A DNA stretch of 43,719 nt, taken from the IMG/VR virus record IMGVR_UViG_2660238269_000008, one strand, 5' to 3'. Within the stretch, counting starts at the first letter, position 1, and the number at the start of each line of letters is the position of its first letter. Origin of the DNA: a virus (taxonomy: Duplodnaviria; Heunggongvirae; Uroviricota; Caudoviricetes). The notes under the pieces were generated by a model. It saw only the letters and a list, made by a program, of their open reading frames with translations. It had not been told where the DNA came from and did not search any database. Positions 12,592 to 43,719 of the stretch are shown piece after piece. The position numbers and the translations under genes are program-made.

Positions 12592-13104
12592 GAGTGACCA
12601 GGCGAGGGAGAAATCCCTCGCCACCTCTGATGTGTCAGGCATCCTCAACGCACCCCACTTAACTCGCTTCGGCGGTTTTTTGTTGTTTATTTTCGGTGAG
12701 CGTGATGCATCTGGTTGTACCGATGTGGCTGGCTGATTCTGTTATTCAGGTGGTTTATTGCTGTTGATTGGCATGTCTTCACGGCTAGAATCGAGGCTCT
12801 TAAGTAGTGCGCAGGGATAAGAGGGATGGCCCCCATAAGGGGAGGTGTTTATAGTTCATGGGATTTTTGTTATGAACGATAAGGAATTAATTGCTGCGCT
12901 TTCTATACCAGGTAATTATGAAGTAATAGTTCTTGGGAATGGTGAGTTTATCGTAATGCCATTGCCATCTGATGTTATTCTGATCAGCAAAGAATCGCAT
13001 GCGGATTCGGTCAGTTACTTCAGCATTAAAAGAGACTAGATTATAATGCTGTAGTAAAGCCAGCCTGAACAACTGGCGTCTGTCGCACCATTACGAGGAT
13101 AGTA

Positions 13105-13383
13105 GTGGTGCATTACAAGAAACTTAACAATTCTGATAATTCAGCCGTCTTTGCCAGCAGGCACGGGCGGTGTTCTCATGCATTCAAATCTGACTGGTTC
13201 CAGCATGACCCATGCACTGAAGAACAGGCCGAATGGCTGATTCAGTGCTACCGCAGACGTGGTTACGAGTTTCAGAAAGATCTCAGCTTCGATCGTCGTC
13301 ACTGGATAATCTCCGTCAGGCTCCCTTATTCCGAACGCCCACCGCGTCCGTCCCGCACATTCCAGCAGCGCATCTGGAGGTAA
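13105..13383 (+). CDS. Hypothetical protein (92 aa)
   Basis: GTG start with GAGGA upstream; immediately precedes the DUF968 gene. Confidence 0.45.
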   Translation: MVHYKKLNNSDNSAVFASRHGRCSHAFKSDWFQHDPCTEEQAEWLIQCYRRRGYEFQKDLSFDRRHWIISVRLPYSERPPRPSRTFQQRIWR

Positions 13384-13384
13384 C

Positions 13385-14434
13385 GTGCGGGTATTACTTC
13401 GACCTGTTCTGGTACCGGAACTCGGTCTGGTTATCGTTAAGCCAGGCCGTGAATCAATGTCAGTATTCCATAACGGCAGAATATTGGTGGAGCCGGAACC
13501 GAAAAACATGCGCGGTCTGCCGTCCGGAGTCGTTCCTGCCGTTCGCCAGCCGCTGGCAGAGGATAAAACATTACTGCCATTTTTCAGCGATGAGCGGGTT
13601 ATTCGTGCAGCAGGTGGTGCAGGTGCACTGTCTGACTGGTTATTACGTCACGTGAAATCCTGCCAGTGGCCACACGGCGATTATCATCACAGCGAAACAG
13701 TCATTCACCGTTATGGTACCGGCGCGATGGTGTTGTGCTGGCACTGTGACAACCAGCTGCGCGACCAGACATCAGAATCACTCGATCAACTTGCTCAGCA
13801 GAATCTGGTTGCCTGGATGATTGATGTCATCCGTCACGCAATAAGCGGTACGCAGGAGAGGGAGTTATCGCTGGCCGAATTATCCTGGTGGGCGGCCTGC
13901 AATCAGGTGGTGGATGCACTACCTGAGGCAGTAGCGCGTCGTTCGCTGGGATTACCAGCGGAAAAAATCCGCTCCGTATACCGTGAGAGTGACATCGTAC
14001 CGGGAGAACAGACAGCCATCAGCATACTGAAGCAGCGCACAAAAAATATTGCGCTGCCACTTCACGTCCACCAGCAACAAAATCCACCACAGAAAAAAAC
14101 GGTTGTCAGTATCGCCGTTGATCCGGAGTCTCCTGAATCGTTCATGAGGCGGCCTAAACGTCGCCGTTGGGTTAATGAGAAATACACGCGCTGGGTAAAG
14201 ACACAGCCGTGTGCGTGTTGTGGTAAGCCAGCTGACGATCCGCATCACCTGATTGGTCATGGTCAGGGGGGAGTGGGAACAAAGGCCCACGATATTTTCA
14301 CGCTACCGTTGTGCCGGGAGCACCACAACGAACTTCATGCAGACCCGCTGAAGTTTGAGAAAAAGTACGGCTCTCAGATTGAGTTAATTTTTCGTTTTCT
14401 TGATCACGCCTTTGCGACTGGCGTGCTCGGGTAA
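13385..14434 (+). CDS. DUF968 (YdfU-like) protein with C-terminal HNH-like zinc motif
   Basis: 349 aa, the length I recall for Qin YdfU; C-terminal CACCGKPADDPHHLIGHGQGGVGTKAHDIFTLPLCREHHNELH. Confidence 0.75.
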   Translation: MRVLLRPVLVPELGLVIVKPGRESMSVFHNGRILVEPEPKNMRGLPSGVVPAVRQPLAEDKTLLPFFSDERVIRAAGGAGALSDWLLRHVKSCQWPHGDYHHSETVIHRYGTGAMVLCWHCDNQLRDQTSESLDQLAQQNLVAWMIDVIRHAISGTQERELSLAELSWWAACNQVVDALPEAVARRSLGLPAEKIRSVYRESDIVPGEQTAISILKQRTKNIALPLHVHQQQNPPQKKTVVSIAVDPESPESFMRRPKRRRWVNEKYTRWVKTQPCACCGKPADDPHHLIGHGQGGVGTKAHDIFTLPLCREHHNELHADPLKFEKKYGSQIELIFRFLDHAFATGVLG

Positions 14435-14446
14435 AAGAGGTGACTG

Positions 14447-14809
14447 ATGCTCATAGATTTGGTTTTACCTTACCCGCCGACGGTGAACACTTACTGGCGA
14501 CGCCGTGGCAGCACATATTTTGTATCAAAAGCCGGGGAGCGTTATCGCCGGGCAGTGGCGCTTATTGTTCGCCAGCAGCGACTGAAATTAAGCCTGTCCG
14601 GACGGCTGGCAATAAAAATTATTGCAGAGCCACCGGATAAGCGCCGCCGTGACCTGGACAATATTCTGAAAGCACCGCTGGATGCGCTGACGCACGCGGG
14701 GTTGTTAATGGACGATGAGCAGTTTGATGAAATCAATATTGTACGTGGCAAGCCAGTATCTGGTGGACGGCTGGAGATAAGAATTACAGAGGTGGGTGTG
14801 CATGAATAA
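14447..14809 (+). CDS. rusA: Holliday junction resolvase RusA
   Basis: 120 aa; DKRRRDLDNILKAPLDALT and GGRLEIRITE align with RusA RRRDLDNLQKAAFDALT ... GGRLELTITE. Confidence 0.9.
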   Translation: MLIDLVLPYPPTVNTYWRRRGSTYFVSKAGERYRRAVALIVRQQRLKLSLSGRLAIKIIAEPPDKRRRDLDNILKAPLDALTHAGLLMDDEQFDEINIVRGKPVSGGRLEIRITEVGVHE

Positions 14810-15467
14810 CCAGTATTTACAGTTTGTTCGTGAGCAACTCATGATTGCCACTGCGGATCTTAGTGGGTCGACAAAAGGCCAGCTGGAAGTCTGGCAGGAA
14901 AATGCCCTGTTCGATACAGGGCGTTACAGACGCAAAAAAATTCGTTACCGCGATGAGGTAACCGGAAAAATGATCACGCGGGATAATCCCCCGATCCCGG
15001 GTAAACAATCACTGGCGAAAGGCTCATCAATTGCCCTGGTCAGTCCGGTTGAGTTTTCGACATCATCATGGCGACGCGCCGTTCTGTCTCTTGAAGAACA
15101 TCATAAAGCCTGGCTGCTGTGGTGTTACAGCGGTAGCATTTGCTGGGAGCATCAGATCGCGATAACGCAGTGGGCGTGGACTGAATTTAATGCTCAATCC
15201 GGTACCAGAAAAATTGCAGGAAAAACTCTGGTGCGCCTGAAGACGTTGATCTGGTTGGCGGCGCAGGCGGTAAAAGCTGAGCTTTTTGGTGGGGAAGGTT
15301 ACGAATACCAGGAACTGGCGTTACTGGTGGGAGTAACAACCAAAAACTGGTCCAAGACATTTACTGGTCACTGGGTTGCAATGAAACACATTTTTCATCG
15401 GCTGGATAGTGAAGCTTTATTGTTGGTGGAGGGAACACGTTCAAAACAAAAGGCGGCATTTTCATAG
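14802..15467 (+). CDS. Q: Late-gene antiterminator Q (non-lambda Q family)
   Basis: Position between rusA and a promoter plus short-RNA terminator; 222 aa. Confidence 0.65.
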   Translation: MNNQYLQFVREQLMIATADLSGSTKGQLEVWQENALFDTGRYRRKKIRYRDEVTGKMITRDNPPIPGKQSLAKGSSIALVSPVEFSTSSWRRAVLSLEEHHKAWLLWCYSGSICWEHQIAITQWAWTEFNAQSGTRKIAGKTLVRLKTLIWLAAQAVKAELFGGEGYEYQELALLVGVTTKNWSKTFTGHWVAMKHIFHRLDSEALLLVEGTRSKQKAAFS

Positions 15468-15473
15468 CAAAGT

Positions 15474-15502
15474 ATTGCAAAAGTAGATAAAAAGGCATAT
15501 AT
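15474..15502 (+). promoter_or_regulatory. Candidate late promoter PR' (TTGCAA-17-TATATT)
   Basis: Near-consensus sigma-70 elements immediately downstream of Q. Confidence 0.55.
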
Positions 15503-15554
15503 TTCGTGTAAATCTGATATTTTGCCGTTATTATACGTGATGGCAAAGCCACTA

Positions 15555-15585
15555 AAACCCGTGACCGAGCGGGTTTTTACCCCCC
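15555..15585 (+). terminator. tR'-like intrinsic terminator of a short 6S-like late leader RNA
   Basis: AAACCCG-TGACCGAG-CGGGTTTTT hairpin plus U-tract about 50 nt downstream of the candidate PR'. Confidence 0.65.
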
Positions 15586-15719
15586 AAAAAATGGCATAGA
15601 CATTAAACGTGATGACGATTGTGCCAATACTTTCTCCATCAATGACGCCCCTTGACTGCATGGAATCCAATTTGTTATGTAATGTGTGTTGATATTTTTG
15701 AGTTGTTAATGGTGTTACT

Positions 15720-16433
15720 ATGGATGACAGTGCTCTGCTCAGAAACTCTTCACTTTTTGTTGCTTATATGGGCTGTCTCGGATGGGGGAGCGCTTATTTC
15801 TATGGGTGGGGTACTTCATTTTACTATGGCTTTCCATGGTGGGTTGTCGGGGCTGGTGTCGATGATGTAGCACGAAGTTTGTTTTATGCTGTGACAGTTA
15901 TTGTTATATTCCTTATTGGATGGGGAGTTGGTATTGTTTTCTTTTTGGGCATAAAACAAAAGCGCAATATACAAAATTTGAGTTTTATCCGGCTTTTTCT
16001 CGCGATATTGCTGCTTTTTATTCCACCTGTTCTGGAGTTTTCTGTAATTCATCAGCATGTTGAGCCAGATGTACTGATTTTCTGCGTTCTTGCTGCCTTT
16101 GCAATCACGCTTTTTGTCAGGTCTGGAAGAAGACTTGTTTCAGTCAAATGTTTTTCGGAAATGTCTGTTATTCGCCATCACCGAATTGAGTTCATGATGG
16201 CTGGGTTTATGATTTATTTCTGGGCATTCTCTCTTATTGCCGGTTGGTACAAACCACAGTTTAAGAGGGAATATCAGGCGGTCCACTATGAGAATGTATG
16301 GTATTACATTATTGCGCGCTATGATGATCGTCTGGTGTTATCGAAATCATACAGGAGTGGGGGTAAGAAATTCGTTATATTTAATAGCGGAAATATTAAT
16401 GATTTTGAAATTAATACTGTCAGAGTACGTTAA
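15720..16433 (+). CDS. Integral membrane protein (about 5 TM segments), unknown function; moron downstream of PR'/tR'
   Basis: 237-aa ORF; hydrophobic segments rich in G/W/F/Y; AT-rich, unlike the flanking phage genes. Confidence 0.6.
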   Translation: MDDSALLRNSSLFVAYMGCLGWGSAYFYGWGTSFYYGFPWWVVGAGVDDVARSLFYAVTVIVIFLIGWGVGIVFFLGIKQKRNIQNLSFIRLFLAILLLFIPPVLEFSVIHQHVEPDVLIFCVLAAFAITLFVRSGRRLVSVKCFSEMSVIRHHRIEFMMAGFMIYFWAFSLIAGWYKPQFKREYQAVHYENVWYYIIARYDDRLVLSKSYRSGGKKFVIFNSGNINDFEINTVRVR

Positions 16434-18980: not shown

Positions 18981-19240
18981 TCTGTGAAGTGTTAAATCCC
19001 TCACAATTCAGTAAGTTGACAGTTGCCTGTCAGACTGAGCATTTGTTAAAAAAATTTCGCATGGTGAATCCCCCTGTGCGGAGGGGCGACTGGTGAACGG
19101 TATGATCTCTTTGATGATCGTAAGCGAGAATACGCGGGTTTGGTGTCACCGGGCTGAACTCACCGGGAGGCACCCGGCACCATGCTCATGGTGATACAGA
19201 AATGCGGCTTCAGCCCCTCTCCGGAGGGGCTTTCTTATGG
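18981..19240 (+). repeat. Isolated copy (U1) of the ~250-bp hairpin-rich repeat family, ending in an intrinsic terminator
   Basis: Carries the three conserved modules tgttaaat.cctcaca, catggtgaatccccctgtgcggaggggc and ctcaccgggaggcacccggcaccatg, then gcccctctccggaggggc plus T-rich tail. Confidence 0.8.
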
Positions 19241-19384
19241 ACAAAAAAAGCCCGCGCTGGGAGACGCGGGCGGCAAGGAATAAACAATAAAACGTGAAGT
19301 AATACTTCAACTGGCGAATAATACCCGACAGTAATCACTCTGCGCAATAGCGTGGCCTTTTTCGAATTGCGGGCTGTAGTCTCC

Positions 19385-20954: not shown

Positions 20955-21980
20955 ATGGAAATGTTAAATGACTCACAATTCGGTTGATGGGCTATTGTCT
21001 GATCGATGGAAGTCTTGTAAAAACGAGCCAGCATAGTGAATCCCCCTGTGCGGAGGGGCGTCTGACATGGTCTCCATAGCGATGGTCACAATACGCAGAT
21101 TCAGTAGTCAGGCTGAATCTACCGGGAGGCACCCGGCACTATGCTGCTTATGGTGTATACATAGCGATCGGCCCCTCTCCGGAGGGGCTTTTTTTGTGCG
21201 GGAAAAGGCTGTGTTGTTAAGTGTTAAATTCCTCACAGTTCAGATGGTTGATGCTTGCCTGTCTGAGGGGGAGTTGTTAAAAAAGTTCTGCATGGTGAAT
21301 CCCCCTGTGCGGAGGGGCGACTGGTGTGATTTGCATCTTTTCTGTTGTAGGCAATGCAAACGCGGGTTCAGGGACACCAGACTGGACTCACCGGGAGGCA
21401 CCCGGCACCATGTTCATGATGATACAGATACGCAGTGTCAGCCCCTCTCCTGAGGGGCTTTTTTATGCAGGAAAAACGCTGTGTTGTGAAATGTTAAATT
21501 CCTCACAGTTCAGATGGTTGATGCTTGCCTGTCTTACGGGGAGTTGTTAAAAAAGTTCTGCATGGTGAATCCCCCTGAGCGGAGGGGCATATCAGCGCAG
21601 GTGTTTCTACTCTATCCTTTCTGTGCGGGTTCAGGTGCTGATACTGAACTCACCGGGAGGCACCCGGCATCATGCATATGGTTAACAGACACGTAGCGAA
21701 GCCCCTCTCCGGAGGGGCTTTTTTATGCAGGGAAAAGGCTGTGTTGTGAAATGTTAAATTCCTCACAATTCATGAGGTTGATGATTGTCTGATTGATGAG
21801 GAGTTTGTTAAAAAAAACGGGCATGGTGAATCCCCCTGTGCGGAGGGGTGATATCGTATCATTTCCTGTGTGGCCGACTGATATCACGGACATTTGTTCA
21901 CCGGGAGGCACCCGGCACCATGCAGTATACAGAGATTAGGCATACATCCAGGCTCCTCATCGCAGGAGCCTTTTTACATG
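20955..21980 (+). repeat. Tandem array of four ~250-bp units (U2-U5) of the hairpin-rich repeat family; candidate structured ncRNA genes
   Basis: Units at about 20955-21196, 21205-21465, 21481-21726, 21741-21980; same conserved modules in each; variable segments keep self-complementarity; each unit ends in a terminator hairpin plus T-run. Confidence 0.8.
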
Positions 21981-22208
21981 TAAAAAAAAACCGCTCCTGG
22001 GAAGAGCGGTTGGCAAGGAAGCAAGGAATAAATAACAAAACGTGAAGTAATTTATTCAGCACCCTAATAATACCTTAGAGTAATCACCTTGCGCAACTGT
22101 AAGGGCGTATTTCTTTTTTGCGGGCTGTTTTTCTGTGTGACTTTTGTGTTTCCGGAGGTCAGCCCGTGCCTTCTCTGACTCAGAACATTATCCCGGCCGG
22201 GAGGATTC

Positions 22209-30680: not shown

Positions 30681-32175
30681 TCTTTCACACATTATTGCCG
30701 CAGCATTCAATGAACCGCTGCTTCTGGAGCCCGCCTATGCGCGGGTTTTCTTTTGCGCGCTGGGGCGCGAGATGGGGGCAGCAAGTCTTTCGGTACCACA
30801 ACAGCAGGTACAGCTTGATGCTCCCGGAATGCTGGCTGAAACGGATGAGTTCATGACCGGAGATAAACGACCGGCCCGTGTTTACCGGGTGGTGAACGGT
30901 ATTGCTGTACTGCCGGTGACCGGCACGCTGGTGCACCGGCTGGGTGGCATGCGGCCATTTTCCGGAATGACAGGCTATGACGGCATTGTTGCCTGTCTTC
31001 AGCAGGCAATGGCGGACACCTCTGTCCGGGGCGTACTGCTGGATATTGACAGTCCGGGCGGGCAGGCCGCCGGTGCGTTTGACTGCGCTGACATGATTTA
31101 CCGCCTCCGGCAGCAGAAGCCGGTCTGGGCACTGTGTAATGACACGGCCTGTTCTGCGGCCATGCTGCTGGCGTCGGCCTGCTCCCGACGGCTGGTTACC
31201 CAGACATCCCGTATCGGCTCCATTGGCGTGATGATGGGCCATGTCAGCTATGCCGGTCATCTGGCGCAGGCCGGAGTGGATATCACGCTGATTTATGCCG
31301 GGGCGCATAAGGTGGATGGCAATCAGTTTGAAGCGTTGCCGTCAGAGGTTCGCCAGGACATGCAGCAGCGGATTGATGCGGCGCACCGGATGTTTGCCGA
31401 AAAAGTGGCGATGTATACGGGGCTGTCTGTGGAAGCTGTCACGGGGACAGAGGCTGCCGTTTTTGAAGGTCAGTCCGGTATTGAGGCCGGGCTGGCGGAT
31501 GAATTAATCAATGCGTCGGATGCCATCAGCGTGATGGCTGCGGCGCTGAACACACATGATACAGGAGGCACTATGCCGCAATTAACTGCAACGGAAGCCG
31601 CCGCGCAGGAGAACCAGCGAGTGATGGGGATCCTGACGTGTCAGGAAGCGAAAGGACGTGAACAGCTTGCCACGATGCTGGCAGGACAACAGGGCATGAG
31701 CGTTGAACAGGCCCGGGCGATTCTGGCCGCGGCAGCACCGCAGCAGCCGGTGGCATCCGCGCAGAGTGAAGCCGATCGCATTATGGCGTGTGAAGAAGCT
31801 AAAGGTCGTGAACAACTGGCGGCAACGCTGGCGGCGATGCTGGATATGACGGTGGAAAAAGCCCGCCCGATCCTGGCGGCTGCACCACTGGCGGATGCCG
31901 GACCCTCACTCCGTGATCAGATTATGGCTCTGGATGAGGCAAAAGGGGCTGAGGCGCAGGCTGAAAAACTGGCGGCGTTTCCCGGAATGACGGTGGAGGC
32001 TGCCCGCGACATTCTGTCCTCATCGCCGGATAAAGCAGAACCGGTTTCTGCATCCACAACCGCCCTGTTTGAACGGTTCATGGCGAACCATTCACCGGCA
32101 GCCGTGCAGGGTGGCGTGTCACAGACGTCGGCAGACGGTGATGCGGACGTGAAAATGCTCATGGCCATGCCATGA
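30670..32175 (+). CDS. C: Prohead protease C (ClpP/S49-like) with C-terminal scaffold (Nu3-like) region containing three tandem ~40-aa repeats
   Basis: N-terminal 300 aa S49-like; C-terminal repeats ..EAKGREQLA..; lambda Nu3 is nested in-frame in C. Confidence 0.85.
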   Translation: MRRNLSHIIAAAFNEPLLLEPAYARVFFCALGREMGAASLSVPQQQVQLDAPGMLAETDEFMTGDKRPARVYRVVNGIAVLPVTGTLVHRLGGMRPFSGMTGYDGIVACLQQAMADTSVRGVLLDIDSPGGQAAGAFDCADMIYRLRQQKPVWALCNDTACSAAMLLASACSRRLVTQTSRIGSIGVMMGHVSYAGHLAQAGVDITLIYAGAHKVDGNQFEALPSEVRQDMQQRIDAAHRMFAEKVAMYTGLSVEAVTGTEAAVFEGQSGIEAGLADELINASDAISVMAAALNTHDTGGTMPQLTATEAAAQENQRVMGILTCQEAKGREQLATMLAGQQGMSVEQARAILAAAAPQQPVASAQSEADRIMACEEAKGREQLAATLAAMLDMTVEKARPILAAAPLADAGPSLRDQIMALDEAKGAEAQAEKLAAFPGMTVEAARDILSSSPDKAEPVSASTTALFERFMANHSPAAVQGGVSQTSADGDADVKMLMAMP

Positions 32176-32211
32176 AGTCAGTGCTGACCATCAATATGAG
32201 GTTTTTACAAT

Positions 32212-32559
32212 ATGGTAACGAAAACCATCACTGAACAACGTGCAGAAGTACGTATTTTTGCCGGTAATGATCCGGCTCATACCGCCACAGGCAGCAGCGG
32301 GATTTCTCAGGCAACACCGGCACTGACGCCCCTGATGCTGGATGAAGCCAGCGGGAAACTGGTGGTCTGGGACGGACAGAAAGCCGGTAGTGCGGCTGGC
32401 ATACTGGTACTGCCGCTTGAAGGCACAGAGACGGTGCTGACGTATTACAAGTCGGGGACCTTTGCGACGGAGGCAATCCGCTGGCCTGAAAGTGTGGATG
32501 AACACAAAAAGGCCAACGCCTTTGTCGGCACAGCCCTGAGTCACGCGGCGCTGCCGTAA
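32212..32559 (+). CDS. D: Head decoration protein D
   Basis: DPAHTAT...TPLMLDE...KLVVWDG...YKSGTF matches lambda gpD. Confidence 0.9.
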   Translation: MVTKTITEQRAEVRIFAGNDPAHTATGSSGISQATPALTPLMLDEASGKLVVWDGQKAGSAAGILVLPLEGTETVLTYYKSGTFATEAIRWPESVDEHKKANAFVGTALSHAALP

Positions 32560-32616
32560 CACGTTATCAGGCCACCGCGTTGGCCTGACTGATTTCTGAA
32601 TGAAAGGAACTGATTT

Positions 32617-33645
32617 ATGGGATTGTTTACGACCCGCCAGTTACTCGGTTATACCGAACAAAAAGTGAAATTTCGTGCGCTGTTTCTGGAACTGTTTTTC
32701 CGCCGTACGGTGAATTTCCACACCGAAGAGGTGATGCTGGACAAAATTACCGGAAAAACGCCGGTGGCAGCCTATGTCTCCCCGGTTGTTGAAGGAAAAG
32801 TGCTGCGTCATCGTGGTGGTGAAACCCGCGTGTTGCGTCCGGGCTACGTCAAGCCGAAACACGAATTTAATTACCAGCAGGCGGTGGAGCGCCTTCCCGG
32901 TGAAGATCCGGCGCAACTGAACGACCCGGCCTACCGTCGTCTGCGTATCATCACTGATAACCTCAAACAGGAAGAGCATGCCATTGTCCAGGTGGAGGAA
33001 ATGCAGGCGGTGAATGCCGTGCTGTATGGCAAATACACCATGGAAGGGGAGCAGTTTGATACTGTCGAGGTGGATTTCGGGCGCTCTGAAGGAAATAACA
33101 TTGAGCAGGCTGACGGTAAAAAATGGTCTGAGCAGGACCGTGATACGTTTGATCCGACGCATGATATTGACCTCTACTGCGATCAGGCCAGCGGTCTTGT
33201 GAATATCGCCATTATGGACGGTACGGTCTGGCGTCTGCTGAATGGCTTTAAGCTGTTCCGCGAAAAACTGGATACCCGTCGCGGCTCAAATTCACAACTC
33301 GAAACGGCAGTGAAAGACCTGGGGGCGGTGGTGTCTTTCAAGGGGTATTACGGTGATCTGGCCATTGTGGTGGCGAAAACATCTTATGTGGCAGAGGACG
33401 GTACCGAAAAACGTTATCTGCCGGAGGGCACGCTGGTCCTGGGAAATACGGCTGCTGATGGCATCCGTTGCTATGGTGCCATTCAGGATGCGCAGGCGTT
33501 GTCCGAAGGTGTGGTGGCCTCTTCCCGTTATCCGAAACACTGGCTGACCGTTGGCGATCCGGCCCGTGAATTCACCATGACGCAGTCCGCTCCGCTGATG
33601 GTGCTGCCGGATCCGGATGAGTTTGTGGTGGTTCAGGTGAAATAA
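32617..33645 (+). CDS. E: Major capsid protein E
   Basis: 342 aa; YVSPVVEGKV, PGYVKPKHE, RRGSNSQLETAVKDLG, TGDPAREFTMTQSAPLM match lambda gpE. Confidence 0.95.
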   Translation: MGLFTTRQLLGYTEQKVKFRALFLELFFRRTVNFHTEEVMLDKITGKTPVAAYVSPVVEGKVLRHRGGETRVLRPGYVKPKHEFNYQQAVERLPGEDPAQLNDPAYRRLRIITDNLKQEEHAIVQVEEMQAVNAVLYGKYTMEGEQFDTVEVDFGRSEGNNIEQADGKKWSEQDRDTFDPTHDIDLYCDQASGLVNIAIMDGTVWRLLNGFKLFREKLDTRRGSNSQLETAVKDLGAVVSFKGYYGDLAIVVAKTSYVAEDGTEKRYLPEGTLVLGNTAADGIRCYGAIQDAQALSEGVVASSRYPKHWLTVGDPAREFTMTQSAPLMVLPDPDEFVVVQVK

Positions 33646-33695
33646 TCCGTGAGCGGGGGCGATATGCCCCGTGTCTTTTTTCACAGAGGGCTGAG

Positions 33696-34079
33696 ATGGC
33701 AACAAAAGAAGAAAATCAGAAACGTCTTCGTGAACTGGCTGGCCTGCTGGGGCGCGAGGCAGATATGTCGGGGAGTGCAGCGGATATTGCTCAACGTGTG
33801 TCTGAGTGGGAAGAGGAGCTTGCTGTTTCCCCGGAAGGCATTATGCACTCTGATGAGAGCGGGTCTGATCAAAATTACACAGACGATGGTGAGCAGTTGA
33901 ACAACACTGATGCTCCGGATGATGTTAAAGCCGTCCGGGTACGGAAGTGCCTGCAAGTGATGGGGTATTGCCCGGAGACAGGTCGTCCCGTTGAGCTGGC
34001 GTTACGGGGTATGCGTGTTCTGGTGCCATCATCACTGGCAACGGCCATGATACAGCACGGAACGGCTGAGTATGCGTGA
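33696..34079 (+). CDS. FI: DNA packaging protein FI
   Basis: Position between E and FII; N-terminal coiled segment like lambda FI. Confidence 0.7.
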   Translation: MATKEENQKRLRELAGLLGREADMSGSAADIAQRVSEWEEELAVSPEGIMHSDESGSDQNYTDDGEQLNNTDAPDDVKAVRVRKCLQVMGYCPETGRPVELALRGMRVLVPSSLATAMIQHGTAEYA

Positions 34080-34425
34080 TTTTCAGAATGCCTTTGATGC
34101 CGCCCTTGCGGGGGTGGACAGCACGATTGTTGAAGTGATGGGGATCCGTGCGCAGTTCACCTCCGGAGCACAACGTGGCGGTGAAGTTCAGGGGGTTTTT
34201 GACGATCCGGAGTCGCTGGGTTTTGCCGGTGGCGGGGTCCGTATTGAAGGAAGCAGCCCGTCATTATTTGTGCGGACGGATACGGTGCGTGCTGTGCGGC
34301 GTGGTGACACGCTGACCATTAACGGCGAGATATTCTGGGTGGATCGTGTTTCTCCGGATGACGGGGGCAGCTGTTATCTCTGGCTCAACCGTGGGCAACC
34401 ACCCGCTCTTAACCGGCGACGATAA
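34072..34425 (+). CDS. FII: Head-tail connector FII
   Basis: GVFDDPE, VRIEGSSPSLFVRTD, GDTLTI, FWVDRVSPDDGGSC.LWL match lambda FII. Confidence 0.95.
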   Translation: MRDFQNAFDAALAGVDSTIVEVMGIRAQFTSGAQRGGEVQGVFDDPESLGFAGGGVRIEGSSPSLFVRTDTVRAVRRGDTLTINGEIFWVDRVSPDDGGSCYLWLNRGQPPALNRRR

Positions 34426-34440
34426 ACGCAGGGTGAAATT

Positions 34441-35016
34441 ATGGCGATAAAAGGGCTTGATCAGGCGATTGATAATCTGAGCCGGGTTCGTAAAAACGCC
34501 ATTCCGGCGGCTTCAGCAATGACGATTAACCGCGTGGCCACAACGGCGATTAATCAGTCTTCATCACAGGTTGCCCGGGAGACAAAGGTACGCCGGAAAC
34601 TGGTTAAGGAACGGTCCAGACTGAAACGGGCGACGGTCAGAAATCCGAATGCAAAAATTATCGTTAACCGCGGTGATCTCCCAGTGATTAAGCTGGGGAT
34701 CAGAATGCTGGGGCGTCGTCCGAACAGCATACTCAAAGCCGGTCAGCATCGTTATCAGCGGGCATTTATCCAGCGATTAAATAATGGGCGCTGGCATGTT
34801 ATGCAACGTCTTCCCCAGGCCAGATATGAGGAGGGCAATGACGACAAGGGCAGGAAAAAGCGTAATCGCCTTCCCATTCAGGTGGTGAAAATCCCGATGG
34901 CGGCCCCACTGAAACAGGCGTTTGATGAAAACGTTGACCGTATCCGTCGTGAACGCCTGCCCAAAGAACTGGCATATGCGCTGAAACAACAACTGAGGAT
35001 TGCGATAAAACGATGA
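34441..35016 (+). CDS. Z: Tail completion protein Z
   Basis: MAIKGL..A..NLSR, SQVARETKVRRKLVKER.RLKRATV, NGRWHVMQR, RIRRERLPKEL match lambda Z. Confidence 0.95.
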   Translation: MAIKGLDQAIDNLSRVRKNAIPAASAMTINRVATTAINQSSSQVARETKVRRKLVKERSRLKRATVRNPNAKIIVNRGDLPVIKLGIRMLGRRPNSILKAGQHRYQRAFIQRLNNGRWHVMQRLPQARYEEGNDDKGRKKRNRLPIQVVKIPMAAPLKQAFDENVDRIRRERLPKELAYALKQQLRIAIKR

Positions 35017-35408
35017 AACATACTGATATCCGTGCAGCCGTACTGGATGCACTGGAGAAGCATGACACCGGGGCGACGCTGTTTGATGGTCGCCCCGCTG
35101 TTTTTGAGGAGGCGGATTTTCCGGCGGTCGCGGTTTATCTGACGGATGCAGAGTATACCGGTGAAGAGCTGGATGCTGATACCTGGCGGGCCACACTGCA
35201 TATTGAGGTGTTTTTACCGGCACAGGTACCGGATTCAGAGCTTGATCAGTGGATGGAAAGCCGGATTTACCCGGCGATGGCGGAGATCCCTGCACTGGCA
35301 GGCATGATTACCACGATGGTTACGCAGGGCTATGAGTATCGTCGTGATGACGATATGGCATTGTGGAGCTCTGCAGATCTGACTTATTCCATTACATACG
35401 AGATGTGA
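35013..35408 (+). CDS. U: Tail terminator U
   Basis: [40 protein letters not shown] matches lambda U. Confidence 0.95.
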
Positions 35409-35415
35409 GGATGAT

Positions 35416-36165
35416 ATGGCAACACCAAATCCCCTGGCGCCGGTAAAAGGTTCCGGCACCACGCTCTGGGTTTACACCGGTAAGGGCGATGCTTATGCAA
35501 ACCCGCTGTCAGATGATGAGTGGACGCGTCTGGCAAAAATAAAGGATCTGACCCCCGGCGAGATGACGGCGGAATCCTACGACGATAACTATCTGGATGA
35601 TGAGGATGCTGACTGGGTATCCACCGGGCAGGGGCAGAAATCTGCCGGTGACACCAGTTTTACGCTGGCCTGGAAGCCCGGCGAGAAAGGGCAGCGTGAT
35701 TTGATTGCCTGGTTTGACAGCAGTGAGACCCGGGCCTACAAAATCCGCTTCCCGAACGGTACGGTGGATGTGTTCCGTGGCTGGGTGAGCGCCATTGGTA
35801 AAGCGGTGACTGCCAAAGAAGTGATCACCCGTACGGTAAAAATCACCAATATTGGTCGTCCGTCGCTGGCGGAGGATCGGGGAGAAATCACACCGGTCAC
35901 CGGTATTACCGTGACGCCACTAACGGGGAATGTGGCAAAAGGTCAGAGCACCACCCTGACTGTGGCCGTTCAGCCGGAAGGCGCAACGGATAAAACCTTC
36001 CGCGCAACGTCGGCAAATCAGAATTTCGCCACTATTACCGTGAAAGGGAACACGATCACCGTGAAAGGTGTTGCGGCAGGTAAAGCGCAGATCCCTGTTG
36101 TCACCGGCAATGGTGAGTTTGCGGCGGTGGCGGAGATCACCGTCACGGATGGCGCTGCGGGCTGA
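35416..36165 (+). CDS. V: Major tail tube protein V (with C-terminal Ig-like domain)
   Basis: [33 protein letters not shown] matches lambda V. Confidence 0.95.
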
Positions 36166-36181
36166 GGGGAGGAGATCAAGC

Positions 36182-36613
36182 ATGTTCCTGAAAACAGAAC
36201 AATTTGAATATAACGGCGTGTCCGTCACCCTTTCCGAACTGTCTGCGCTACAGCGTATTGAGCATCTTGCCCTCCTGAAACGGCGGGCAGAAGAGGCTGA
36301 AGCCAGCGGCAACCTGCAGGTGAGCGTGGAAGACCTTGTCAGAACCGGGGCGTTTCTGGTGGCGATGTCCCTGTGGCATAACCATCCACAGAAAACGCAG
36401 TCACCGTCAATGAATGAGGCCGTGATGAAGATAGAGCAGGAAGTGCTCACCACCTGGCCTGCCGATGCCATTGCCCGGGCGGAAGAAGTGGTGTTGTGCC
36501 TGTCCGGGATGATCGAAGCTGTTCGTCCGGATACTGATATCACCGAAGTGGCGAAAAATAACGTGCTGACTGATGATGATTTTTCTGCGGGAAAGTCTTC
36601 GACGGCGAGCTGA
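36182..36613 (+). CDS. G: Tail assembly chaperone G
   Basis: Position and size as lambda G; slippery heptamer G GGA AAG at 36589..36595 in the zero frame. Confidence 0.85.
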   Translation: MFLKTEQFEYNGVSVTLSELSALQRIEHLALLKRRAEEAEASGNLQVSVEDLVRTGAFLVAMSLWHNHPQKTQSPSMNEAVMKIEQEVLTTWPADAIARAEEVVLCLSGMIEAVRPDTDITEVAKNNVLTDDDFSAGKSSTAS

Positions 36614-37053
36614 ATTTTGCCCTCAGACTGGCGCGTGAGATGGGGAGACCCGACTGGCGCGCCATGCTTGCCGGGATGACATCCACCGAATATGCCGACT
36701 GGCGACATTTTTACCGCACGCATTATTTTCACGATACCCAGCTGGATATGCATTTTTCCGGGCTGACGTACGCTGTACTCAGCCTTTTTTTTTGCGATCC
36801 GGATATGCATCCCTCTGATTTCAGTCTGCTTGTCCCCCGGCATGAGGAAGCGCAGGTGGAGAGGCAGGATGAGGACAAAATGCTGATGCAGAAAGCGGCA
36901 GGACTTGCCGGAGGCGTCCGGTTCGGTGGGGACGGAGGGCGCGATATTTTATCGTCTGCGGATGTGGCGGATGTCATGGTGGATGATGCCGTATTAATGA
37001 TGGCTTCAGCGGGGATTTCCGGAGGTGTGAGATATGTCCCAGTCGGTTGGTGA
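36589..37053 (+). CDS. T: T portion of the G-T fusion made by programmed -1 frameshift at G GGA AAG
   Basis: ORF 36640..37053 lies in the -1 frame relative to G; canonical lambda-type slippery site. Confidence 0.8.
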   Translation, partial: GKVFDGELNFALRLAREMGRPDWRAMLAGMTSTEYADWRHFYRTHYFHDTQLDMHFSGLTYAVLSLFFCDPDMHPSDFSLLVPRHEEAQVERQDEDKMLMQKAAGLAGGVRFGGDGGRDILSSADVADVMVDDAVLMMASAGISGGVRYVPVGW

Positions 37054-39613
37054 TCTTGTTATTGACCTGAGTCTGGATGCGGTCCGTTTCGATGAGCAGA
37101 TGAGCCGGGTAAGGCGTCATTTTTCCGGACTGGATACCGACGCCAGAAAGACCGCCACTGCCGTTGAGCAGGGGCTGAGCCGCCAGGCGCTGGCTGCACA
37201 AAAAGCCGGGATTTCCGTCGGGCAGTATAAAGCGGCCATGCGAACCCTGCCCGCACAGTTTACGGATATCGCCACGCAGCTTGCCGGTGGTCAGAATCCC
37301 TGGCTTATTCTGCTGCAACAGGGCGGTCAGGTGAAAGACTCGTTCGGTGGTCTTATCCCGATGTTCCGGGGACTGGCGGGAGCCGTCTCGCTACCTGCCG
37401 TCGGGATCACATCACTGGTCGCCGCGACAGGTGCGCTGGCGTATGCCTGGTACCAGGGGGATTCCACGCTTTCAGCGTTTAATAAAACCCTGGTTCTTTC
37501 CGGTAATCAGTCAGGACTGACGGCAGAGCGCATGTTGACGCTCTCCAGAGCCGGGCAGGCGGCAGGGCTGACGTTTAACCAGGCGGGAGAGTCACTGGCA
37601 GCCCTGGTCAGTGCCGGTGTGCGTGGTGGTGAACAGTTTGATGCCATTAACCAGAGTGTCGCGCGTTTTGCGTCTGCCTCCGGTGTGGAGGTGGACAAGG
37701 TTGCAGAGGCTTTCGGAAAACTGACCACCGACCCGACGTCGGGGCTGACTGCGATGGCACGCCAGTTCCGTAACGTGACGGCGGAGCAGATTGCGTATGT
37801 TGCACAGCTGCAGCGTTCCGGAGACGAGGCCGGTGCCTTACAGGCGGCGAACGATATTGCCACGAAAGGCTTTGATGACCAGACCCGCCGCCTGAAAGAG
37901 AACATGGGGATGCTGGAAACCTGGGCGGATAAAACAGGGAAGGCGTTCAAATCGATGTGGGATGCCATTCTGGATATCGGTCGTCCGGAATCCTCAGCGG
38001 ATATGCTTGCCAGTGCGCAGAAGGCATTTGATGAGGCGGATAAAAAATGGCAGTGGTACCAGAGCCGGAGCCAGCGCCGCGGTAAAACCTCCTCTTTCCG
38101 GGCCAACCTTCAGGGTGCATGGGATGACCGGGAAAATGCCCGTCTGGGGCTGGCGGCGGCAACGCTGCAGTCGGATATGGAAAAAGCCGGTGAACTGGCG
38201 GCAAGGGACAGGGCTGAGCGTGAGGCGTCACAGCTGAAGTATACCGGAGAGGCGCAGAAAGCGTATGAACGCCTGCTGTCGCCGCTGGAGAAATATACCG
38301 CCCGTCAGGAAGAACTGAACAGGGCCCTGAGAGACGGGAAAATCCTGCAGGCGGATTACAACACGCTGATGGCGTCGGCGAAAAAGGATTATGAAGCGAC
38401 GCTGAAAAAACCGAAGTCGTCAGGTGTGAAGGTGTCTGCCGGTGAGCGCCAGGAAGACCGGGCACATGCAGCCATGCTGGCGCTTGAAACCGAGCTCCGG
38501 ACGCTGGAGAAGCACAGTGGTGCGAATGAGAAAATCAGCCAGCAGCGCCGGGATTTGTGGAAGGCGGAAAGTCAGTATGCGGTCCTGAAAGAGGCCGCCA
38601 CGAAACGGCAGTTATCCGGGCAGGAAAAATCCCTGCTGGCTCATGAGAAAGAGACGCTGGAGTACAAACGCCAGCTGGCTGAGCTGGGTGACAAGGTGGA
38701 GCACCAGAAACGCCTGAATGAGCTGGCACAGCAGGCGGTGCGGTTTGAAGAGCAGCAGAGCGCGAAGCAGGCCGCCATCAGCGCAAAAGCCCGCGGTCTC
38801 ACTGACCGTCAGGCGCAGCGGGAGTCTGAAGCGCAGCGTCTTCGTGACGTGTACGGTGATAATCCGCAGGCGCTGGCCCGGGGCACCGGGGCACTGAAAC
38901 AGACATGGGCGGATGAAGACATGCTGCGCGGTGACTGGCTGGCCGGGCTGAAGTCCGGCTGGGGCGAGTGGGCGGAAAGTGCGACGGACAGTTTTTCGCA
39001 GGTTAAAAGTGCAGCCACGCAGACCTTTGATGGTATTGCACAGAATATGGCGGCGATGCTGACCGGCAGTGAGCAGAACTGGCGCAGCTTCACCCGTTCC
39101 GTGCTGTCCATGATGACAGAAATTCTGCTTAAGCAGGCAATGGTGGGGATTGTCGGGAGTATCGGCAGCGCCATTGGTGGGGCTGTTGGTGGCGGCGCAT
39201 CCGCGTCAGGCGGTACAGCCATTCAGGCCGCTGCGGCGAACTTTCATTTTGCGACCGGCGGATTTACGGGCACGGGCGGCAAATATGAGCCTGCGGGGAT
39301 AGTTCACCGCGGGGAGTTTGTTTTCACGAAAGAGGCAACCAGCCGGATAGGTGTGGGGAATCTTTACCGTCTGATGCGCGGCTATGCGGAAGGTGGTTAT
39401 GTGGGTGGTGCCGGAAGTCCGGCGCAGATGCGGCGGGCGGAAGGTATTAATTTTAATCAGAACAATCACGTGGTGATTCAGAACGACGGTATAAACGGAC
39501 AGGCGGGGCCGCAGCTGATGAAGGCGGTGTATGACATGGCCCGTAAGGGGGCGCAGGATGAACTCCGGCTGCAGTTGCGTGATGGCGGTATGTTATCAGG
39601 GAGCGGGCGATGA
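37034..39613 (+). CDS. H: Tape measure protein H
   Basis: 859-aa ORF of the size and position of lambda gpH (853 aa). Confidence 0.9.
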   Translation: MSQSVGDLVIDLSLDAVRFDEQMSRVRRHFSGLDTDARKTATAVEQGLSRQALAAQKAGISVGQYKAAMRTLPAQFTDIATQLAGGQNPWLILLQQGGQVKDSFGGLIPMFRGLAGAVSLPAVGITSLVAATGALAYAWYQGDSTLSAFNKTLVLSGNQSGLTAERMLTLSRAGQAAGLTFNQAGESLAALVSAGVRGGEQFDAINQSVARFASASGVEVDKVAEAFGKLTTDPTSGLTAMARQFRNVTAEQIAYVAQLQRSGDEAGALQAANDIATKGFDDQTRRLKENMGMLETWADKTGKAFKSMWDAILDIGRPESSADMLASAQKAFDEADKKWQWYQSRSQRRGKTSSFRANLQGAWDDRENARLGLAAATLQSDMEKAGELAARDRAEREASQLKYTGEAQKAYERLLSPLEKYTARQEELNRALRDGKILQADYNTLMASAKKDYEATLKKPKSSGVKVSAGERQEDRAHAAMLALETELRTLEKHSGANEKISQQRRDLWKAESQYAVLKEAATKRQLSGQEKSLLAHEKETLEYKRQLAELGDKVEHQKRLNELAQQAVRFEEQQSAKQAAISAKARGLTDRQAQRESEAQRLRDVYGDNPQALARGTGALKQTWADEDMLRGDWLAGLKSGWGEWAESATDSFSQVKSAATQTFDGIAQNMAAMLTGSEQNWRSFTRSVLSMMTEILLKQAMVGIVGSIGSAIGGAVGGGASASGGTAIQAAAANFHFATGGFTGTGGKYEPAGIVHRGEFVFTKEATSRIGVGNLYRLMRGYAEGGYVGGAGSPAQMRRAEGINFNQNNHVVIQNDGINGQAGPQLMKAVYDMARKGAQDELRLQLRDGGMLSGSGR

Positions 39614-39939
39614 AAACCTTTCGCTGGAAAGTGAAGCCGGATATGGAGGTGAACTCGCAGCCGTCGGTGCGTGAAGTGCGTTTTGGTGACGGGTACTCAC
39701 AGCGTATGGCGGCAGGGCTGAATGCTGACCTGAAAACATACAGGGTGACGCTTTCCGTGACCCGGGAGGAGGCGCGGCATCTGGAAGCGTTCCTGGCAGA
39801 GCACGGGGGCTGGAAGGCATTTTTGTGGAAGCCACCCTATGCATACCGGCAGATAAAGGTGACCTGTGCCGGGTGGTCTGCGCGGGTCGGGATGTTGCGC
39901 GTTGAGTTCAGCGCGGAGTTTAAGCAGGTGGTGAACTGA
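39610..39939 (+). CDS. M: Tail tip protein M
   Basis: MKTFRWKVKP...VTLSV..EEA..LE.FL.EHGGWK.FLW.PPY..RQIKVTCA.WS.RV.MLRVEFSAEF.QVVN matches lambda M. Confidence 0.95.
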   Translation: MKTFRWKVKPDMEVNSQPSVREVRFGDGYSQRMAAGLNADLKTYRVTLSVTREEARHLEAFLAEHGGWKAFLWKPPYAYRQIKVTCAGWSARVGMLRVEFSAEFKQVVN

Positions 39940-40637
39940 TGCAGGATATTCACGAAGCAAGCCTGAACGAGTCGGTTAAGTCAGAGCAGTCACCGCGGGT
40001 GGTGCTCTGGGAAATCGACCTGACGGTGCAGGGCGGTGAGCGGTATTTTTTCTGCAATGAGCTGAATGAAAAAGGGGAGCCGGTGACCTGGCAGGGGCGT
40101 GAATATCAGGCGTACCCGATTGAGGGCAGCGGCTTTGAGATGAACGGAAAGGGCAGCAGTGCCCGCCCGTCGCTGACGGTGTCCAATCTTTTCGGCCTTG
40201 TCACCGGGATGGCGGAGGATTTGCAGAGCCTGGTGGGTGCCACGGTGGTCCGCCGCCGGGTGTATGCGTGTTTTCTTGATGCGGTGAACTTTGTGGCGGG
40301 GAATCCGGAGGCAGACCCGGAGCAGGAGCTGACGGACCGGTGGGTGGTGGAGCAGTTATCAGCGCTGACGGCCATGACGGCCTCGTTTGTGCTGGCGACA
40401 CCGACGGAGACGGACGGTGCGCTGTTTCCCGGTCGCATCATGCTGGCGAACACCTGTATGTGGGATTACCGGGGCGATGAGTGCGGGTATAACGGTCCGG
40501 CAGTGGCGGATGAGTTCGACAACCCCACCACGGATATCCGGAAGGACAGATGCAGTAAATGCATGCGCGGGTGTGAGATGCGCGGCATGGTGGCTAATTT
40601 CGGCGGTTTCCTTTCCATTAATAAACTTTCGCAGTAA
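39939..40637 (+). CDS. L: Tail tip protein L
   Basis: 232-aa ORF in the lambda L position. Confidence 0.9.
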   Translation: MQDIHEASLNESVKSEQSPRVVLWEIDLTVQGGERYFFCNELNEKGEPVTWQGREYQAYPIEGSGFEMNGKGSSARPSLTVSNLFGLVTGMAEDLQSLVGATVVRRRVYACFLDAVNFVAGNPEADPEQELTDRWVVEQLSALTAMTASFVLATPTETDGALFPGRIMLANTCMWDYRGDECGYNGPAVADEFDNPTTDIRKDRCSKCMRGCEMRGMVANFGGFLSINKLSQ

Positions 40638-40647
40638 ATCCCGTTTT

Positions 40648-41391
40648 ATGACACAGACTGAATCAGCGATTCTGGCGCATGCCCGGCGGTGTGCGCCAGC
40701 GGAGTCGTGCGGCTTCGTGATAAGCACCCCGGAGGGCGAACGGTACCAGCCCTGCGTGAATATCTCCGCAGAGCCGGAGGCGTATTTTCGTATTGCACCG
40801 GAAGACTGGCTGCAGGCACAGATGCAGGGGGAGATTGTGGCGCTGGTCCACAGTCATCCCGGTGGACTGCCCTGGCTGAGCGAGGCGGACCGGCGGCTGC
40901 AGATAAAGAGTGCCCTGCCCTGGTGGCTGGTCTGCCGGGGTGACATTCACCGGTTCCGCTGTGTGCCGCACCTGACCGGACGGCGCTTTGAACACGGTGT
41001 GACGGACTGTTACACCCTGTTCCGGGATGCTTACCATCTGGCGGGGATAACGCTGCCGGATTTTGTGCGTGAGGATGACTGGTGGCGCAACGGTCAGAAC
41101 CTGTACCTGGACAACCTGGCGGAAAACGGCTTTTACCGGGTGTCTCCGTCCCGTGCACAGGCAGGCGATATTCTGCTGTGCTGCTTTGGCGCATCGGTGC
41201 CGAATCATGCCGCCATTTACTGTGGCAACGGTGAACTGCTTCACCATATACCTGAACAACTGAGTAAACGGGAGAGGTATTCAGAGAAATGGCAACGACG
41301 AACGCATTCTGTCTGGCGTCACCGCCACTGGTCCGCATCTGCCTTCACGGGGATTTACAACGATTTGGTCGTCGCATCAGCCTGTATGTGA
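40648..41391 (+). CDS. K: Tail tip assembly protein K (MPN/JAB plus NlpC/P60 domains)
   Basis: MTQTESAILAHARRCAPAESCGFV...HSHPGG... near-identical to lambda K; ATG at 40648. Confidence 0.95.
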   Translation: MTQTESAILAHARRCAPAESCGFVISTPEGERYQPCVNISAEPEAYFRIAPEDWLQAQMQGEIVALVHSHPGGLPWLSEADRRLQIKSALPWWLVCRGDIHRFRCVPHLTGRRFEHGVTDCYTLFRDAYHLAGITLPDFVREDDWWRNGQNLYLDNLAENGFYRVSPSRAQAGDILLCCFGASVPNHAAIYCGNGELLHHIPEQLSKRERYSEKWQRRTHSVWRHRHWSASAFTGIYNDLVVASACM

Positions 41392-41968
41392 ACACGGCAG
41401 CGGAGGCCATCCGTGCCCTGTCGCTGCAGGTGCCGGGATTCCGCTGTCAGATGAACGAAGGCTGGTATCAGATACGTATTGCCGGTGAGGATACCGCGCC
41501 GGAGGCGGTGTATGCCCGTCTTCATGAGCCACTGAGCGGGAGGGCCGTGATTCATATTGTACCGAGGCTGGCAGGGCCGGGGGAAATGGTGTTTTTCAGG
41601 TGGTGCTGGGGGCTGCAGCCATCGTGGGTTCTTTCTTCACCGCCGGTGCAACGATGGCGTTGTGGGGCGCAGCCCTGAGTGCCGGAGGGCTGACTGCCAC
41701 CACGATGCTGTTCTCACTGGGTGCCAGCATGATACTGGGTGGTGTGGCTCAGATGCTGGCCCCGAAGGCAAAGACGCCGGAGTACAAAAGTACGGATAAC
41801 GGTAAACAGAACACGTATTTTTCGTCACTGGACAACATGATTGCCCAGGGTAACCCGATGCCGGTGCCTTACGGTGAAATGCTGGTTGGTTCACGACGGA
41901 TATCCCAGGACATCAGCACCCGTGATGAGGGCGGTGACGGGAAAGTGGTGGTTATCGGGCGGGGATGA
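41289..41968 (+). pseudogene. I: Tail tip assembly protein I, frameshifted in a G5 run (about 41575-41590)
   Basis: ORFs 41289..41678 and 41600..41968 match the N- and C-terminal halves of lambda I in different frames; the switch maps to ccggggg. Confidence 0.75.
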
Positions 41969-42013
41969 AAATAAAAAAATCCCGCAGAGTTAGCGGAGCT
42001 GCGGGAGAGAACG

Positions 42014-42133
42014 ATGAAGATTAACTTTATGGAGTTATTTTTCAGGCATCAAAAAAGTAACGCAGCGTCATTATTGCGGCTACAGGCAATTGCCGGAAAT
42101 GTGAAGAATTTCAGAAATTTTATTCTGTCATGA
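42014..42133 (+). CDS. Candidate small ORF (39 aa) within a 240-bp insert between I and J
   Basis: ATG with GGGAGAG 5 nt upstream; flanked by hairpins at 41979..42004 and 42137..42160 (the latter followed by a T-rich run). Confidence 0.25.
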   Translation: MKINFMELFFRHQKSNAASLLRLQAIAGNVKNFRNFILS

Positions 42134-42208
42134 CACAGGCACCCTCCGGGGTGCCTGTTGTTTTCTGGCATAAACAGATTCAGACATCAGACAGGAGAGG
42201 GGGACAGA

Positions 42209-43719
42209 GTGGGTAAAGGGGGCGGCAAGGGGCACACACCGCGTGAGGCGAAGGACAATCTCAAATCAACGCAGATGATGAGCGTGATTGATGCCATTGG
42301 TGAGGGACCGGTGGAAGGTCCGGTGAAGGGACTGCAGAGTATTCTGGTGAACAAAACCCGCTGACGGACACGGACGGTAATCCCGTGATACACGGTGTGA
42401 CCGCCGTCTGGCGTGCCGGGGAGCAGGAGCAGACACCGCCGGAAGGCTTTGAGTCCTCCGGGCGGAAACCGCACTGGGCGTGGAGGTGACGAAGGCAAAG
42501 CCGGTGACGCGCACCATCACGTCAGCGAACATTGACCGTCTGCGGGTCACCTTCGGGGTGCAGTCACTGGTGGAGACCACCTCAAAGGGTGACCGTAATC
42601 CCTCTTCTGTCCGGCTGCTGATTCAGCTTGAGCGTAACGGTAACTGGGTGACGGAGAAGGATATCACCATTAACGGCAAGACCACCTCGCAGTACCTGAC
42701 GTCGGTGATTCTGAATAATCTCCCTGAGCGCCCCTTTAACATCCGGATGGTCAGGGAGACGGCGGACAGCACCACGGACCAGCTGCAGAACAGAACGCTG
42801 TGGTCGTCATACACCGAAATCATCGATGTGAAACAGTGCTACCCGAACACGGCCATTGTGGGGCTGCAGGTGGATGCGGAGCAGTTTGGTGGCCAGCAGC
42901 TGACGGTGAACTACCATATTCGTGGTCGCATCATTCAGGTGCCGTCAAACTATGACCCGGAAAAACGCACCTACAGCGGTATCTGGGACGGCAGCCTGAA
43001 ACCGGCATACAGCAATAACCCGGCCTGGTGCCTGTGGGACATGCTGACCCACCCGCGCTACGGCATGGGAAAACGCCTGGGGGCGGCGGATGTGGACAAG
43101 TGGGCTCTGTATGCCATCGGGCAGTACTGCGACCAGACGGTCCCGGATGGTTTCGGGGCACAGAGCCGCGGATGACCTTTAATGCGTACCTGTCACAGCA
43201 GCGTAAGGTGTGGGATGTCCTGGGGGATTTCTGCTCGGCGATGCGCTGTATGCCGGTATGGAACGGCCAGACGCTGACGTTCGTTCAGGACCGCCCGTCG
43301 GATGTGGTGTGGCCGTACACCAACAGCGATGTGGTGGTGGATGATAACGGCGTGGGGTTCCGCTACAGCTTCAGTGCCCTGAAGGACCGGCACACGGCGG
43401 TGGAGGTGAATTACACCGACCCGCAGAACGGCTGGCAGACTTCCACGGAACTGGTGGAAGACCGGACGCCATCCTGCGCTACGGGCGCAATCTGCTGAAG
43501 ATGGATGCGTTTGGCTGTACCAGCCGCGGTCAGGCCCACCGTGCCGGACTGTGGGTGATAAAGACCGAACTGCTGGAAACGCAGACGGTGGATTTCACGC
43601 TCGGGTCACAGGGGCTGCGGCACACGCCCGGTGACATCATTGAAATCTGTGATAACGACTATGCCGGGACCCTGACCGGCGACGTATCCTGTCCATCGAT
43701 GCCGCCAGCCGCACACTGA
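42209..43719 (+). pseudogene. J: Central tail fibre / host-specificity protein J, 5' part, with at least four frameshifts; continues beyond the window
   Basis: GTG start (VGKGGGKGHTPREAKDNLKSTQ as lambda J); lambda-J-like sequence jumps frame near 42360, 42460, 43157 and 43462; four successive ORFs in the track. Confidence 0.8.

Follow-up and report, generated by a model that had tools for sequence, protein, structure and literature searches.

The window, i.e., the whole 43,719-nucleotide stretch of DNA analysed here, comes from a lambdoid E. coli prophage with lambda-type tail genes at its right end, as laid out in the map of open reading frames (ORFs). The tail-tip genes follow the order H-M-L-K-I-J in the ORF map, in the Pfam assignments and in annotated relatives; gene I sits between K, whose product carries JAB and NlpC/P60 domains, and J, of which only the 5′ part is present. 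The features under discussion are collected in Table 1, together with nine single-base deletions that are described further below.

Table 1. Features of the window. For the single-base deletions, the run in the relatives is given before the run in the window.
Feature	Coordinates	Strand	Basis or remark
Deletion in int, T6 to T5	513-517	-	A5 on the int strand; T6 in intact relative
IS1 in int	805..1571		9-bp target duplication 796-804 / 1572-1580; comparison with relatives
Deletion in IS1 copy (insB), GGG to GG	1525-1526		six independent assemblies have GGG
Deletion, intergenic, C5 to C4	33667-33670	+	all relatives have C5, as does JWSO02000007.1, identical apart from this run
H, tail gene	37034..39613		ORF map
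M, tail gene	39610..39939		ORF map
L, tail gene	39939..40637		ORF map
K (Prok-JAB and NlpC/P60 peptidase), intact, upstream partner of I	40648..41391	+	Pfam; identical to WP_001380365.1-encoding loci
I	41289..41968	+	overlaps the end of K by its first 103 nt
I, N-terminal half, start frame, codons 1-96, Lambda_tail_I domain	41289..41576	+	translation, Pfam PF06805, alignment to 8iyk_I
G3 run, one G missing (G4 to G3 in I), actual site of the frame break	41574..41576	+	the four closest intact orthologs aligned have G4
I, C-terminal half, -1 frame (AGGNGVFQVVLGAAAI... to stop 41966-41968)	41577..41968	+	translation; alignment to 8iyk_I and 9e7m chains
G5 run, named earlier as switch point	41579..41583	+	same length in the four closest intact orthologs aligned
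I-J spacer, 240 bp, two conserved hairpins	41969..42208	+	context, outside the lesion
J, 5′ part	42209..43719	+	runs to the window end
Deletion in J, C4 to C3	42357-42359	+	
Deletion in J, G4 to G3	42460-42462	+	
Deletion in J, G5 to G4	43155-43158	+	
Deletion in J, C3 to C2	43462-43463	+	
Deletion in J, GG to G	43681	+	

The Lambda_tail_I domain (PF06805) was detected at residues 16-97 of the I product with 53.6 bits against a gathering cut-off of 23.8 (E = 3e-14), a score that is reached both by the N-terminal ORF as it stands in the window and by the restored protein. Once restored, residues 1-225 align with residues 1-223 of lambda gpI (PDB 8iyk chain I; E = 1.2e-97), and the C-terminal part matches the 9e7m chains (E = 1.1e-38); for the window sequence to give this colinear match to gpI, the two frames have to be joined. 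Given this end-to-end alignment of the restored protein, the N- and C-terminal halves belong to one gene and their resemblance to gpI is not due to chance. An earlier, sequence-only reading had claimed that gene I is lambda-I-like with its halves in different frames, and this is borne out by the translation of both frames as well as by the gpI alignment. The intact ortholog in strain 2012EL-2448 translates to 226 residues and also gives a full-length alignment to lambda gpI. Judged from these alignments, gene I is an ordinary ortholog of lambda gpI, a tail-tip assembly protein.

In its native form the product would have 226 residues, comprising the N-terminal Lambda_tail_I domain, a Gly-rich linker (..PRLAGAGGNG..), a hydrophobic segment and a C-terminal domain. 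Cryo-EM has shown that residues 135-223 of lambda gpI form a trimeric plug in the lumen of the tail tip (PMC10721106). In lambda the C-terminal domain is this plug inside the tail tip, with gpJ holding the plug and the plug supporting the end of the tape-measure protein. The likeness to lambda gpI (PF06805; PDB 8iyk, 8iyl, 8k35 and 8xcg, chain I) covers the full-length match, the N-terminal domain, the hydrophobic segment and the plug region, and the window further shares with lambda the K-I overlap and the L-K-I-J order. In contrast to lambda, where I is a single open frame, the window ORF is split at codon 96/97 and one G is missing.

Read in its start frame, I encodes the lambda-I-like N-terminal half as far as ...AVIHIVPRLAG, followed by out-of-frame residues and a stop at 41676-41678, and the -1 frame (...AGGNGVFQVVLGAAAIVGSFF...) continues through to the stop at 41966-41968. 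A single uninterrupted frame, absent from the I of the window, is present in lambda and in all five of the orthologs fetched. The lesion was placed by alignments to these five orthologs and by pairwise comparisons. In the pairwise alignments the orthologs read GGCAGGGGCCGGGGG where the window reads GGCAGGGCCGGGGG, i.e., G4 has become G3, and with the four closest intact orthologs aligned the sequence is GGCA-GGGG-CC-GGGGG-AAATGG, as against GGCA-GGG-CC-GGGGG-AAATGG in the window. The shift is thus of -1 and falls where the N-terminal domain ends, within the Gly-rich linker; one added base restores the frame. The sequence-only reading had put the switch at ccggggg (41577..41583), which is right to within about 5 nt but names the wrong run, as the loss lies in the upstream G4 and the G5 is unchanged; the comparison with orthologous prophages that it had proposed leads instead to the one G missing at 41574..41576 relative to the intact orthologs. 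The sequence 3′ of the break matches the part of lambda gpI that comprises the hydrophobic segment and the plug domain. Because this downstream half is the structural part, a real frameshift would cost the phage a functional tail-tip plug.

A megablast search of the 680-bp I against 5,426 complete E. coli genomes gave matches of at least 80% coverage in 1852 genomes, and nearly all of the matches listed span 681 bases, compared with the 680 of the window. Five RefSeq genomes are identical over the 680-base I except for the missing G; over 1.6 kb (window 40482-42125), strain 2012EL-2448 too differs from the window in this base only. The intact I genes of E. coli lambdoid and Stx-type prophages (WP_001089952.1; strains 2012EL-2448, 2011C-3911 and OkiPb01692) are 99.4-99.9% identical in DNA to that of the window, with an identical K protein and the same neighbour genes, but they have GGGG in place of GGG, and their annotation is that of an intact 'tail assembly protein'. 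Ten contigs were found to encode exactly the K protein of the window: in eight the tract is G4-CC-G5-A3 and I is intact, one has G6 for G5, and one, JWSO02000007.1, has G3.

The mutant I junction had no exact match in IMG/VR, compared with 13 for the intact junction. A pattern covering both alleles found one G4 match and no other among metagenome contigs and no match among GTDB species representatives, each with too little power. Neither the truncated I products (129 aa from the ATG at 41289; 96 aa from the GTG at 41388) nor the 231-aa J fragment is on record in the gene-position index; since pseudogenes have no product in NCBI annotation, this absence carries little weight. The 122-aa C-terminal ORF of I is on record at five places, of which four are contig starts and the fifth is strain 00-3076, with a different lesion.

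Comparison with the closest relatives identified nine lesions in the window, every one a single-base deletion at a homopolymer run (eight at runs of 3-6 bases and one at a GG pair), spread over int, IS1, an intergenic site, I and, with five of them, J; no private insertions were found in the window in this comparison. The link that had been drawn from the break in I to a broken J and int is correct and proved decisive; J has five deletions, and int both a deletion and an IS1. Six of the eight deletions scored in a clustering test fall in the last 2147 nt (P = 3.6e-7), and of the six deletions within the final 2.1 kb, five are in G/C runs of at least 3 bases, which account for 10.9% of bases there (P = 8e-5). 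Over its first 39 kb, the window differs from strain 2011C-3911 by only 6 substitutions, together with a 767-bp insertion in int and single-base gaps. Some other indels were judged to be evidently natural, namely a compensating pair in H (39208/39214), a spacer variant at 42009 and A8/A9 relative to one relative at 21982. Every other late gene matches its annotated ortholog in length, and neither nonsense mutations nor larger deletions were seen in these genes. The 3′ part of H also contains a mosaic patch (39012..39544) with about 40 substitutions relative to otherwise near-identical relatives; this patch is real recombinational variation, because the +1/-1 pair within it keeps the frame, unlike the deletions at other sites, which are uncompensated.

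The exact tape-measure protein of the window was found on contig JWSO02000007.1 (assembly GCA_001188105.2, 567,341 bp). Compared with the last 12.7 kb of the window (31035..43719), this contig has no substitutions and a sole difference, C5 as against C4 at 33667-33670; all six deletions in I and J are present in it, including the G3, and it ends 733 bp past the last base of the window. Its indel density, scored against three intact relatives over the fetched 13.4 kb, rises from 0 indels per kb in the first 10 kb to 1 in the next 1 kb, 2 in the 1 kb after that, 4.4 in the next 0.7 kb and 15 in the last 733 bp, and over these last 733 bp there are 11 indel events and 2 substitutions relative to strain 2012EL-2448. 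Close to the contig end there are also insertions, a deletion of 3 nt and deletions at sites that are not homopolymers. The lesion in I, at 2.9 kb from the contig end, is the first step of this monotonic ramp; the end itself falls in J, a gene with 2 to 14 copies per genome. To judge from this profile, the ramp is what a consensus would be expected to show where coverage thins out or is mixed at the end of a contig, and not the pattern of mutational decay. The window starts at the int stop codon and ends at the stop codon of the J fragment, and it looks like a provirus cut at gene boundaries from a JWSO02000007.1-like contig. This contig is apparently another record of the same prophage, and the two may share an assembly lineage.

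The IS1 copy in int measures 767 bp in the window because a GGG is read as GG at 1525-1526. A chimeric int-IS1 product with the same junction was found in six independent assemblies, gut metagenomes included, all of which have GGG at this site and show no other difference from the window; several int-IS1 records are short-read metagenome contigs, broken just inside IS1. Because the int-IS1 product recurs in six independent assemblies, the integrase gene of the prophage is really disrupted, and on the evidence of these records the IS1 insertion is real and the disrupted int allele circulates. In one JGI contig, IS1 is followed by gltD/gltB and not by the int C-terminus, a layout suggestive of a rearrangement mediated by IS1. 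A 156-aa C-terminal fragment of int was considered as evidence on the T-run and set aside: it is common, but it comes from a different int allele with about 96% identity.

The tract of I that holds the break, GGGGCCGGGGGAAA, was found with three run-length variants in three assemblies, each affecting a different run within the same 14 nt. In strain 00-3076 (NZ_CP027584.1, 2085775-2086355) A3 has become A2, 10 nt downstream of the window lesion, and the gene (C7A02_RS11130, 'tail assembly protein') is marked by RefSeq as a frameshifted pseudogene. The I of this strain belongs to a different prophage, which has HK97-like head genes and an I-J gap of about 920 bp, as against 240 bp in the window. 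In JAOWNB010000002.1 (GCA_026134235.1) the L-K-I-J stretch occurs twice, at 5,033,011-5,036,754 and 12,379-16,122, i.e., at both ends of a 5,042,330-bp contig; the two copies are identical over 3,744 nt except for G5 versus G6 in I, and in one of them the I gene is not called. We infer from their position and identity that they would be an untrimmed circular long-read overlap with a consensus error in it, i.e., two consensus calls of one locus. Both the CP027584 pseudogene and GCA_026134235.1 resemble the window in having a single-base run-length difference in the same tract of I in long-read-era assemblies, but the changes are A3 to A2 and G5 to G6, as opposed to G4 to G3.

Through its five single-base deletions the 5′ part of J is split over four or more frames, and where the window has 1520 bases, all of the 12 best J relatives listed have 1525. 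The best relatives of J reach only 98.7% identity, as against full identity for those of K and I; a consensus in which paralogous copies of J were mixed may account for this. Unlike lambda, in which I and J presumably abut, the window has a 240-bp spacer with hairpins between these genes. One hairpin lies at 41981-41997, and the other, at 42135-42158, is followed by a T-tract and forms a strong intrinsic-terminator-like site just before J. The spacer is conserved among lambdoid and Stx-type prophages, has a conserved 3′ block and is unannotated in the records seen; it may be a small RNA or a regulatory element. A 39-aa ORF with a Shine-Dalgarno sequence (42014..42133) was dismissed as a moron gene, its ATG being ACG in two relatives.

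Two further features lie to the left of the tail genes. The STnc100 sRNA family (Rfam RF02076) is represented by five copies (119-172 bits; 19030-19242 and 21002-21981), four of them in tandem, downstream of a Q / methyltransferase / tRNA-Ile-tRNA-Arg block in a region with no annotated genes in relatives. The layout of this region resembles that of Stx phage, and no stx genes are annotated in the relatives. At 12267-12441 there is a match to the sok antitoxin RNA (RF01794; 115.8 bits), and the adjoining gene is hokD, of the Hok/Gef family, in relatives; on the strength of this match and its neighbour, the pair is a hok/sok-type module inside the prophage.

The sequence-only reading had left the damage to I, J and int between a decaying prophage and systematic homopolymer errors. 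For I and J the nine run deletions and the ramp point to errors; decay stands only for int, in view of the IS1 seen in six assemblies. The frameshift in I is very probably an assembly artefact, i.e., a homopolymer under-call in the consensus. On this account the real DNA would read GGGG and the deposited consensus GGG at 41574..41576, the under-call having arisen in sequencing or assembly, probably in a long-read assembly whose coverage was thin or mixed close to a contig end lying in the repeated J. An artefact is favoured because all nine lesions are homopolymer deletions, because indels ramp up to the contig end and because JWSO02000007.1, with C5 for C4, contradicts the window. The lesion in I is a one-base change in a run set in otherwise identical sequence, and towards the contig end there are many like lesions, in excess of substitutions. 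Homopolymer indel errors of a long-read or pyrosequencing-type consensus at low-coverage contig ends likewise take the form of deletions at runs with a steep ramp at the end. The 14-nt tract is likewise miscounted, at other runs, in CP027584 and JAOWNB010000002.1, and both the absence of the mutant junction from IMG/VR and the full-length late genes fit an artefact. Other records disagree with the window at 33667-33670 and at the IS1 G run, and the sole matching record at the I site shares the G3.

Homopolymer runs are natural hot spots for indels, and one G of the G4 could also have been lost in reality by strand slippage, inactivating I in a decaying prophage already immobilised by IS1; we regard this as unlikely. 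The product would then be the N-terminal domain with a 33-residue nonsense tail, with the plug domain lost and no functional tail tips formed. Such a loss is made plausible by the real IS1 in int, with normal excision barred and selection on the tail genes possibly relaxed, and by the frameshifted I that RefSeq flags in another genome (CP027584). The G3 shared by JWSO02000007.1 would be reproducible if that record was independently sequenced, and the lesion in I stands at the very start of the ramp, where indel density is still low. However, 6 substitutions in the first 39 kb are set against nine single-base deletions, and in E. coli mutation spectra substitutions exceed indels about tenfold. 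A real mutation also fits poorly with nine lesions that are all homopolymer deletions and clustered, with a monotonic ramp that ends in 11 indel events against 2 substitutions, with the contradiction of the window by JWSO02000007.1 at one run and by six assemblies at another, and with late genes in which no nonsense codons or larger deletions were seen elsewhere. It is barely credible that I works in two frames, the G-rich tract serving to join or separate the N-terminal domain and the plug domain by programmed -1 ribosomal frameshifting, by transcriptional slippage or by phase variation. The break does lie exactly at the linker between both domains, the tract varies in length in three assemblies, and lambda tails use a programmed -1 frameshift elsewhere, in G/GT. 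Yet I is a single open frame in lambda, in the five fetched orthologs and in eight of the ten loci with identical K, so that a two-frame layout is not conserved in the orthologs. Nor do the zero-frame codons at the break, GGG CCG GGG GAA, contain an X XXY YYZ slippery heptamer, and the three variants lie in three different runs of long-read-era assemblies, one of them between apparent copies of one locus. It is likewise very unlikely that the linker tract is a real slipped-strand hot spot which would repeatedly switch tail-tip assembly off (possibly on) in resident lambdoid prophages.

Returning to the artefact as the preferred reading, the window and JWSO02000007.1 carry systematic homopolymer under-calls that become worse towards the contig end, which amounts to a quality flag for these records. 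As a consequence, the damage to I, J, part of int and the insB of IS1 is not to be read as prophage decay. If the frameshift in I were real, a prophage that had lost its mobility anyway would simply have a further defective tail gene, a common situation in E. coli. As it is, the tail module of this prophage is probably intact, and the one real inactivating event in it is the IS1 insertion in int.
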